Source of the DNA: Candidatus Kuenenia stuttgartensis
GTDB lineage: Bacteria > Planctomycetota > UBA11346
Direction of reading: 5' to 3'
Length of the DNA stretch: 64,000 nucleotides
NCBI GenBank assembly: GCA_945876185.1
Contig: CAMCMZ010000003.1
Coordinates: forward strand, 15,454-79,453
The notes under the pieces are model-generated. The model was not told where the DNA came from and made no database searches. It saw only the letters and a program-made list of their open reading frames with translations. The translations under genes were made by a program, and so were the position numbers. This document shows positions 1,080-50,225 of the stretch, in pieces. Position 1 is the first letter of the stretch. Every line of letters begins with the position of its first letter.

Positions 1080-1629
1080 TTCAGCCGTCCCTACGGGACT
1101 GCAACCAAACAAATTCCGCGCAATCCGGGGTTGAAACCCCGGGCTAACATCTATCCGTCCCTACGGGACGGCCATTGACGGGATTACCACGGAAAAAACC
1201 AAAAGGGCGTCCCGTAGAGACGCTGCGAGGTTAGCCCGGAGTTGAAACCGGTTGAAACCTCGGGGTAACATCAATCCGTCCCTACGGGACGGCCATTGAC
1301 GGGATTACCACGGGGGAAACGAAAAGGGCGTCCCGTAGGGACGCTCTGGGGATTGGCCATTCGTACGGGGTGATCAGGCGAGCCGGCCAAGGCCAACCAT
1401 AATTATCCAGCAATTCATCATCTTTCCGGCCTTGGCCGGCTCGCCTCGCGGTCAGCGGCCGGTTGCAAACCGGCGGTCCCAGACGCAAGCGTTTTTGCAG
1501 GTTTTTGTAGTTTGACGACGCAAATGGCCAATCCCCAGGGCGTCCCGTAGGGACGCTGCGAGGTTAGCCCGGGGTTTAAACCCCGGGACCGGCAAGAAGT
1601 CAGAGGCAAGTCCCGTAGGGACGACTGAA
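1080..1629. repeat. REP-like palindrome cluster (GTCCCTACGGGAC / CCCGGGGTTNAAACCCCGGG), ~122-bp unit in tandem, interrupted by a MITE
   Basis: Repeated CGTCCCTACGGGAC and its reverse complement; two near-identical tandem units; outer inverted pair at 1082-1100 and 1609-1627. Confidence 0.85.
1346..1538 (+). mobile_element. 193-bp MITE, family A, copy 1
   Basis: Perfect 16-bp TIR CTGGGGATTGGCCATT; 19-bp flanking direct repeat GGCGTCCCGTAGGGACGCT (1327-1345 and 1539-1557); second copy at 49832-50024. Confidence 0.9.
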
Positions 1630-46507: not shown

Positions 46508-46616
46508 CCCGGGATCGCGGCCGTCTCGGCCGCACGTGGATTTTGCCAGGTGCGCCGGCAAGCCACCAAAGCCAACACAAACGCTTGCGCCTGGGACCGC
46601 CGGTTTTCAACCGGCC
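46508..46616 (+). repeat. Two GGGA-tagged REP variants (CCCGGGATCGCGGCCGTCTCGGCCGC; CCTGGGACCGCC...)
   Basis: Located between convergent mntP and YkgJ genes; the second is preceded by AAACGCTTGCG as in MITE A. Confidence 0.7.
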
Positions 46617-46632
46617 GTCGGCGACGGACGCT

Positions 46633-48565: not shown

Positions 48566-48604
48566 CGCACGATGCCCCCGCCGGCGTCGCAGCAAGTGCC
48601 CGCG

Positions 48605-48713
48605 CCTGGGACCGCCGGTTTCCAACCGGCCGCTGGCCCTGTGGCGATCCGGCCAAGGCCAAAATGACCAGGGAATAGCAGATAAAAACGTGATCGGCCT
48701 TGGCCGGATCGCC
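48605..48713 (-). repeat. TIR-less relative of the MITE-A interior (REP + long hairpin)
   Basis: REP followed by GGCGATCCGGCCAAGGCC...GGCCTTGGCCGGATCGCC; same order as the MITE-A reverse complement, with a compensatory G>T/C>A change. Confidence 0.75.
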
Positions 48714-48891
48714 AGTCCACCTTGTACCCACACCCAACCCCAGCGCCGGCGTCCACGCCGGCCAGGACAACCGCACCAGTCGGAGGTCCACCCCATGGAT
48801 GTGGCCGCCTGACGCCAAACCAAACCCTTGACCCGCATCAAGGCCAGCGGTCGATCGCGTGACACCCTGCACGCCATCACCGGGGGCCGCC

Positions 48892-49719: not shown

Positions 49720-49831
49720 CAGGTGCAGGTGCGGCAGGCGATAGCCCTGGCGGCCCGGGGCGCCGCAAAAGTCGGCCTTCCTGGGAGCGCCGGCGTCTCG
49801 CCGGCTGGAAAAGCAGCATCCGAAGGATGCC

Positions 49832-50024
49832 CTGGGGATTGGCCATTCGTACGGGGTGATCAGGCGAGCCGGCCAAGGCCGACCAAAATTATCCGGCAAT
49901 TCACCATCTTTCCGGCCTTGACCGGCTCGCCTAGCGGTCAGCGGCCGGTTGCAAACCGGCGGTCCCAGACGCAAGCGTTTTTGCTGGTTTTTGTAGTTTG
50001 AAGACGCAAATGGCCAATCCCCAG
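49832..50024 (+). mobile_element. 193-bp MITE, family A, copy 2
   Basis: Same 16-bp TIR; 8 substitutions vs copy 1; 17-bp flanking repeat AGCATC(C/T)GAAGGATGCC at 49815-49831 and 50025-50041. Confidence 0.9.
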
Positions 50025-50225
50025 AGCATCTGAAGGATGCCACCAACCGACTTATGAGATGGCCTGCCTGGCGGCCCACGCCGGCCGCTGCAGGCGCCAC
50101 GGGGCGTTGGCAGACCCGTGCGGAATGCCCTCGATTGAGCGGATTTCCTCAAGATAGCGGCCCAGCGCCCAGCGAACCAGCAGGCCAGCGGAATGAGAGT
50201 TGCACCGAGTCGCAGGCCTCCACGA

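Follow-up and report, generated by a model that had tools for sequence, protein, structure and literature searches.

MITE-A in the window

The window (the whole stretch of DNA that was analyzed, 64,000 nucleotides) corresponds to C3:15454-79453 of a MAG of 3.8 Mb (G000; 123 contigs, 66% G+C, 82% complete). It contains two copies of an element designated MITE-A, both flanked by direct repeats that form hairpins, together with a relic, a fragment and an uninterrupted paralogue of the first target:

1206-1224, no strand: uninterrupted paralogue of the copy 1 target (GGCGTCCCGTAGAGACGCT then GCGAGGTTAGCCCGG); one hairpin, no element
1327-1345, no strand: left target duplication of copy 1, GGCGTCCCGTAGGGACGCT; 19 bp, a complete hairpin with a 7-bp stem, a GTA loop and 1 nt on each side
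1346-1538, forward strand: MITE-A copy 1, 193 bp; TIRs at 1346-1361 and 1523-1538
1539-1557, no strand: right target duplication of copy 1, GGCGTCCCGTAGGGACGCT; 19 bp, identical to the left one
46542-46617, reverse strand: MITE-A-like fragment, 82% identity over element positions 111-186
48602-48760, reverse strand: decayed MITE-A-like relic, 77% identity over element positions 18-141; degenerate TIR CTGGGGTTGGGTGTGG, with the hairpin GCCGGCGTGGACGCCGGCG before the TIR
49771-49814, forward strand: PRE repeat hosting copy 2, left part
49815-49831, no strand: left target duplication of copy 2, AGCATCCGAAGGATGCC; a 17-bp hairpin
49832-50024, forward strand: MITE-A copy 2, 193 bp; TIRs at 49832-49847 and 50009-50024
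50025-50041, no strand: right target duplication of copy 2, AGCATCTGAAGGATGCC; a 17-bp hairpin with 1 mismatch to the left one
50042-50066, forward strand: PRE repeat hosting copy 2, right part

The two copies are separated by 8 substitutions (95.9% identity), and their 16-bp TIRs (CTGGGGATTGGCCATT / AATGGCCAATCCCCAG) are perfect. Copies, TIRs and the 19- and 17-bp hairpin flanks were found exactly where a preliminary description of this DNA had placed them. The interior of the element features a 19-bp inverted repeat (element positions 31-49 / 83-101) and a REP-type hairpin (113-131), and these internal inverted repeats are the sole source of its strong fold. The MITE-A consensus has no ORF of useful length, and no Rfam match to it was returned when the whole window was scanned; at 193 bp and without an ORF, the element is non-coding and non-autonomous, as had been supposed. 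BLAST located ca. 27 copies in the MAG at 87% identity or more and ca. 29 diverged copies or fragments. MITE-A thus has the characteristics of a MITE: it is short and non-coding, it possesses TIRs and target duplications, and it occurs in many dispersed copies.

In the intergenic region around copy 1 (983-1667), REP-type hairpins of at least three families (GTCCCTACGGGAC, CCCGGGGTTGAAACCCCGGG, GCGTCCCGTAGGGACGC) are densely clustered and build a composite unit of ca. 200 bp that recurs in the sister species (G001). Copy 2 is nested in a PRE repeat of ca. 100 bp (49771-50066) directly after a gene.

Whole-hairpin target duplications

In both flank repeats in the window, the loop is 3 nt long and a single unpaired base lies on either side. 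Folded as single-stranded DNA, the flanks of copies 1 and 2 yielded -8.2 and -5.1 kcal/mol, and none of 200 shuffles was as good. For the census of the MAG, a perfect hairpin with a stem of at least 6 bp was required no more than 2 nt from the TIR end, and 20,000 random positions served as controls. Such a hairpin adjoins 55 of the 84 TIR ends, compared to 136 of the 20,000 random positions (0.68%); the adjacency is therefore far beyond chance. The pattern first noticed in the window recurs when the flanks are tabulated genome-wide: hairpin direct repeats of 13-23 bp, reaching 0-1 nt past the stem, flank 27 of the 35 TIR-bounded copies (e.g. ACCAGGAACCCGTGGTTCCTGGT, 23 bp; GCCAGGGCCAATGGCCCTGGA, 21 bp; GCCCGGCCTCGCGGCCGGGC, 20 bp). 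The other eight have no recognizable duplication, and most of them show differing hairpins on the left and right.

The targets in this genome comprise 28 distinct hairpins, many of them in unique sequence; the stems are 6-10 bp long and the loops 3-4 nt. The two hairpins of one MITE-A copy are identical, and the hairpins vary from copy to copy. Because 28 distinct hairpins were used and the length of the duplication tracks that of the hairpin, the target is recognized by structure, not by sequence, which upholds the original proposal. REP and PRE hairpins are the commonest targets, with 9-10 copies of MITE-A in one PRE repeat and ca. 7 in one REP family; both orientations occur. The earlier statement that the element parasitizes REP hairpins holds to that extent, but one insertion was into a palindrome located within a small ORF.

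Empty sites and footprints

The sister species was used for the empty-site comparison. At G001:C9, a single copy of the hairpin (ACCTGGAACCCCTGGTACCTGGT) lies in surroundings that are 92-93% identical to those of C35:20074-20266 in the source MAG, where the element is found with two copies. The composite REP unit that hosts copy 1 is intact and has one hairpin in G001:C17 and C7. Elsewhere in the source MAG, ca. 40 PRE copies are without the MITE and have one hairpin each, and 9-10 PRE copies carry the MITE and two hairpins. The empty alleles, orthologous and paralogous, had been named as the place where two pre-existing hairpins should be sought; one was found in each of these cases, and the hairpin is retained and duplicated at every informative site. 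At the locus orthologous to copy 2 (G001:C51:7367-7426), neither PRE nor MITE is present; because copy 2 is nested in its PRE, this locus indicates that the PRE was inserted before MITE-A.

These sites bear on the notion that the flanking hairpins pre-exist as a tandem pair or travel inside a larger composite unit. The recurrence of MITE-A in one PRE repeat (9-10 copies) and in one REP family (ca. 7) would agree with it, as would a PRE (C86:11963) that has a tandem hairpin without an element. The notion is contradicted by the single hairpin of the ca. 40 PRE copies, of the REP units in both genomes and of the orthologous G001:C9 site. It is further contradicted by the 28 unrelated hairpins, many in unique sequence; by their identity within a copy and difference between copies; by the two insertion orientations within one repeat family; and by the equal pattern of full-length ISs in unrelated metagenomes (see below). 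The probability left to this notion is negligible, and duplication of the target hairpin upon insertion is preferred.

Two sites have tandem hairpins of a different kind. In the PRE at C86:11963-11996, a 17-bp hairpin is present in tandem with no element, and C8:43046-43290 comprises two tandem hairpins, a MITE-like element and a third hairpin. They are candidate excision footprints or repeated insertions. The earlier claim that the element multiplies hairpins stands insofar as the number of copies rises by one with each insertion, but the element-free tandem footprints found were limited to one or two.

The C35 target is a perfect 23-bp palindrome inside a putative membrane ORF of ca. 66 aa that is conserved in G001 (92-93% nucleotide identity). 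The insertion adds 216 nt and introduces stop codons into the ORF. The G001 counterpart of this palindrome is imperfect.

Search for an autonomous partner

IS1182 transposases are characterized by PF13751 (DDE_Tnp_1_6) with a DUF772 partner domain. A partner of this family had been suggested in the preliminary description, and the family sample of 48 MAGs (the source MAG and 47 others) was examined for it. PF13751 transposases are present in 14 of the 48 genomes, which would favor the suggestion, as would the hairpin targets, varied in sequence, of the IS1182-family elements IS1272 and TnSha1 (PMC5678879, PMC4923244). However, no PF13751 match was obtained in the source MAG, and the MITE-A TIR is absent from all PF13751 loci in the family. 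A search for the TIR pattern at the order level added nothing; the order comprises the same genomes as the family.

Several other candidates were rejected. The sole DDE_Tnp_1 match in the source MAG (C95) is the end of another multi-copy IS with unrelated ends. Solo TIRs at the ends of contigs C20, C43, C49, C10 and C14 belong to truncated MITEs or to copies split by another repeat, not to a full IS. The exact MITE-A TIR also ends unrelated small elements in two other family genera, one of them 661 bp long with a hairpin duplication of 20-21 bp. In G024 and G033, the loci with the TIR are either non-autonomous elements of other kinds or solo ends beside ordinary genes.

An exact scan for the 16-mer TIR was carried out over 185,579 species genomes; among the matches listed, most were due to chance, and one was a complete element, L093:1-1840. 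It has the TIRs CTGGGGATTGGCCGTT / AATGGCCAATCCCCAG, a 123-aa ORF that overlaps a 468-aa transposase, and a right flank that is a hairpin (ACCTAGGGCGTTGCCCTAGGT). MITE-A therefore has, in addition to its other MITE characteristics, ends in common with an autonomous IS, as the TIR is identical. This 16-bp TIR is all that MITE-A and the full IS have in common. A T-variant of the TIR is found on L140-L151 with the same type of duplication.

The exact TIR thus sits on IS701-like elements with equal hairpin duplications (see the next section), and the transposase of the parent element has no PF13751 match. Furthermore, IS1272 deletes its hairpin and makes no duplication. An IS1182-family transposase acting as it does for IS1272 is consequently a highly improbable partner; the TIR belongs to an IS701-like clade of two-gene elements. 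As had been noted, the window has no transposase with these ends, and the same is true of the source MAG: the IS701-like transposase of the L093 clade is absent from it and from the 47 other family MAGs. Because it is missing from all 48, MITE-A is an orphan as far as the bins show. This absence speaks against mobilization in trans in this organism; that multi-copy ISs of 1.9 kb are usually lost from bins might account for it, but is no argument for a partner.

The full-length elements

The full elements are 1.84-1.9 kb long and encode OrfA (ca. 111-130 aa), which overlaps the start of a DDE transposase of 459-468 aa. The best NCBIfam match of the L093 transposase is IS701_3 (NF049999; E 2.5e-41) at 142 bits, below the 170-bit cut-off, and it matches Pfam DDE_5 at 35.1 bits, above the cut-off of 27; PF13751 is not matched. 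Homologues of the transposase number more than 3,500, mostly on metagenome contigs of ca. 1.9 kb, and in metagenomes from soil, sediment and freshwater the members of the clade run into the thousands. In the transposase alignment, D98, Y356, E363 and K370 are invariant and R359 is the consensus residue, which constitutes a full Y-2-R-3-E-6-K motif.

On long contigs, the duplications of L149 (TTCCCCGCACACGCGGGGAT, 20 bp) and L151 (ACGGGGACAGGATGTCCCCGC, 21 bp) are both whole hairpins. In 80 further loci (46-66% identity), the clean duplications are 18-29 bp long and are all hairpins, that of L176 being 29 bp with a 13-bp stem. A perfect hairpin adjoins 87 of the 112 full-IS ends versus 10 of 1221 control positions (0.8%). 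Among the 28 full elements with hairpins at both ends, the left and right hairpins are unrelated in 17; unrelated pairs are frequent on short contigs. At least two of the 28 have inverted flanking hairpins (three by eye: L160, L222 and L235), i.e. the stem is the same and the loop is inverted. Unrelated and inverted flanks are provisionally attributed to chimeric contigs or to recombination between copies. For L160, L222 and L235, chimeric assembly across copies of opposite orientation in one REP family is likely, with a real inverted duplication as the less favored alternative.

OrfA is present in nearly all full copies examined. It matches HARE-HTH (PF05066, E 3e-6), and its model (pLDDT 86) features a long N-terminal helix followed by a winged helix. 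A fold search returned generic winged-helix matches only, all with E > 0.001.

When plasmids were searched with the clade transposase at the protein level, only distant canonical IS701 relatives (20-25% identity) were found, and cluster look-ups returned no name. Two of these plasmid relatives, L240:378-1958 (Rhizobium leguminosarum plasmid NZ_CP018234) and L241:742-2216 (Microvirga plasmid pMVF16-1), have a single ORF, no OrfA and 5-bp duplications (CTAAG/CTTAG). They have a TIR core in common with the hairpin clade: CT(G/C)GA(C/G)TTTGGCCA compared to CTGG(G/A)G(A/T)TTGGCCA. Because L240 and L241 combine this core with 5-bp duplications and lack OrfA, the sequences point to the hairpin habit as a derived trait that coincides with OrfA. 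If this is correct, the clade is an evolutionary test case, in which the acquisition of a small winged-helix gene and the change from 5-bp to whole-hairpin duplications coincide.

Comparison with known systems

The hairpin clade resembles the IS701 family in its IS4-superfamily DDE transposase (the IS701_3 match, although below cut-off, and the DDE_5 match) and in the TIR core of L240 and L241. Canonical IS701 elements have been described as having a single ORF, a length of 1.4-1.55 kb, a duplication of exactly 4 bp and, for the most part, no YREK motif (PMC2266710). With canonical members taken as 1.4-1.6 kb long with one ORF and 4-5-bp duplications, the hairpin clade differs in its length (1.84-1.9 kb), its gene content (OrfA and the transposase) and its duplications (13-29 bp); it also has the full Y-2-R-3-E-6-K motif, which is mostly missing from canonical IS701. 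The TIRs are therefore of the IS701 type, whereas duplication length, ORF number and size, and the presence of YREK depart from it. No description of whole-hairpin duplication by IS701-type elements was found in the searched literature.

The nearest known case is IS1272 (IS1182 family), which targets hairpins with deletion. IS1272 and TnSha1 of staphylococci are "stem-loop replacing": all or part of the hairpin is lost without any duplication, the targets are inverted repeats of varied length and sequence that are often terminators, and attack at the 3' feet or blunt cuts have been proposed (PMC5678879, PMC4923244). They resemble MITE-A and the IS clade in that recognition is by structure and insertion occurs in both orientations; they differ in that the transposase is of another family and the hairpin is lost, while MITE-A and the IS clade keep and duplicate it. 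Duplication of a whole stem-loop appears in that work only as a hypothetical possibility (Fig. 13, pathway b; PMC5678879, PMC4923244). The assertion in the preliminary description that such duplication is known for some IS1182-family elements could not be confirmed; IS1272 and TnSha1 are described as deleting the hairpin (PMC5678879, PMC4923244).

The ISs that target REPs, i.e. IS1397, ISKpn1 and ISPsy8 (IS3), ISPa11, ISPpu9/10 and IS621 (IS110), and ISRm22, each use one REP family, with a fixed internal break (often the loop or symmetry axis) and duplications of 0-6 bp (PMC1525189). They also insert into extragenic palindromic repeats with high selectivity; in contrast to the present elements, they are sequence-specific and never duplicate the whole hairpin. 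MITE-A is like other bacterial MITEs (MITEPye1, Correia, RUP, Nezha) in being small, non-coding and multi-copy, with TIRs and a strong internal fold, and in having a TIR in common with an autonomous IS, from which mobilization in trans is presumed; MITEPye1 with ISPye18 is an example (PMC11578231). These MITEs have fixed short duplications (2-10 bp), whereas those of MITE-A are variable, long hairpins. In REP/REPIN systems (RAYT, a Y1 transposase), the hairpin itself is mobile and there is no TIR with a duplication; MITE-A has both, and its hairpins are derived from the target. In spacer integration by Cas1-Cas2, strand transfers occur at both borders of a partly palindromic CRISPR repeat, and gap repair duplicates the repeat. 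The resemblance may be taken as an analogy only, as that enzyme is unrelated, specific for the leader-repeat sequence and not part of a transposon.

Proposed integration at the feet of hairpins

It is considered likely that MITE-A derives, as a non-autonomous element, from a branch of IS701 with two genes, the transposase of which acts in trans at the 5' feet of hairpins. This enzyme, a DDE transposase of the IS4 superfamily, would be supplied by an element of that branch. The target would be a short, perfect palindrome with a stem of 6-14 bp and a loop of 3-4 nt, and its two 5' feet, 0-1 nt beyond the stem, would each receive one 3' end of the mobile element. When the gaps are repaired, the palindrome would be copied in full, so that a direct copy of the hairpin flanks the element on either side, and the duplication (13-29 bp) would be as long as the hairpin. 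The attack is placed at the feet because a direct duplication implies strand transfer, on both strands, at the 5' end of the duplicated segment, here the two 5' feet of the palindrome.

With DDE transposases, the cuts in the two strands of the target are normally a short, fixed distance apart, and for that reason the length of the duplication characterizes a family. A stagger of 13-29 bp that matches the hairpin length is difficult to account for other than by recognition of DNA shape by the enzyme, a cruciform being the simplest case, and it seems that shape rather than sequence sets the position of the cut. Because the stagger varies with stem length and the targets have no common sequence, an extruded cruciform would be the most likely form of the target. 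In B-DNA, 13-29 bp would separate the 5' feet, and their helical phase would vary; in a cruciform they would lie together at the four-way junction, neighbors whatever the stem length. Strand transfer at the 5' feet of a cruciform has been drawn as a hypothetical pathway (PMC5678879). The loop sequence showed no significant bias with respect to insertion orientation, which, together with the occurrence of both orientations in one repeat family, fits a symmetric target.

The extrusion of a 17-23-bp palindrome as a cruciform has a high energetic cost in vivo, and two other forms of the target were considered. In the first, the target is cut as ordinary duplex: the transposase or a dimer of OrfA would bind GC-rich palindromes and cut with an unusually long stagger without extrusion. 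Dimeric DNA-binding proteins commonly read palindromes, OrfA has a probable dimerizing helix and a winged helix in its model, and short palindromes rarely extrude in vivo. Yet the targets have no common sequence (28 hairpins in the source MAG and dozens more in metagenomes), and a protein that reads duplex could not detect palindromy without sequence. In addition, stems of 6-14 bp and duplications of 13-29 bp always end 0-1 nt outside the stem, and a fixed transpososome could not span 13-29 bp at changing helical phase. Cutting of ordinary duplex is thus regarded as quite unlikely.

In the second, the substrate is a hairpin in single-stranded DNA, on the lagging-strand template or during transcription, and the second strand is joined after replication. 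This idea is doubtful but carries somewhat more weight than the duplex one. Such a hairpin forms far more readily than a cruciform, and a weak excess of GNA triloops was observed on the sense strand of the transposase (14 vs. 5). The loop-orientation bias is not significant, however, and complementary 4-nt loops are balanced (TGAA 6, TTCA 5); MITE copies occur in both orientations within one REP or PRE family; and a DDE element, both ends of which are double-stranded, can generate a direct duplication only with two target strands. A cruciform attacked at both 5' feet therefore remains the preferred substrate.

A more specific proposal is put forward tentatively and is held to be somewhat less probable than its opposite: the DDE transposase of the clade may capture four-way junctions and integrate at the foot whatever the sequence, with the HARE-HTH protein OrfA as the structure sensor that converted an ordinary IS701 element making 4-5-bp duplications into a structure-guided one. 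Its action would resemble that of RuvC, a related resolvase with the RNase-H fold that cuts junctions. If junction capture is correct, each insertion would mark a palindrome that had been extruded naturally in vivo, and the enzyme would amount to an integrase that is addressed by shape and independent of sequence. Recognition of the hairpin as a structure, if true, would furnish a tractable system for studying how an integrase recognizes a four-way junction or hairpin, and would constitute a mechanism by which copies of REP and terminator hairpins are spread around genomes. In annotation, the long palindromic direct repeats of this clade can be mistaken for parts of the element or for REP pairs.

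Other repeats

The internal hairpin of MITE-A (window 1458-1476; GCCGGTTGCAAACCGGC, then GGTCCCAG) is a REP that is multi-copy in other genera of the family (G005, G024 and G034; loci L004-L006 and L011-L013). The REP copies that match it are often closely spaced and alternate in orientation.

The C95 fragment (L001; G000 C95:9899-10054) is located at a contig end, and its terminal sequence (...CCGTCATCCGATGGATGC...) is found at no fewer than 15 contig ends. Seven contig ends of G000 share a repeat (GAAAATGCATAGCGTTGCTTCAAGCCGCGGCG...) with a long hairpin of its own: C10:71360-71506, C43:1-147, C70:1-148, C26:1-148, C36, C89 and C123. The repeat probably represents a further multi-copy element at which the assembly is interrupted. 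It adjoins a truncated MITE-A-like end at 32 nt (C43) and 42 nt (C10) from the tip of the TIR.
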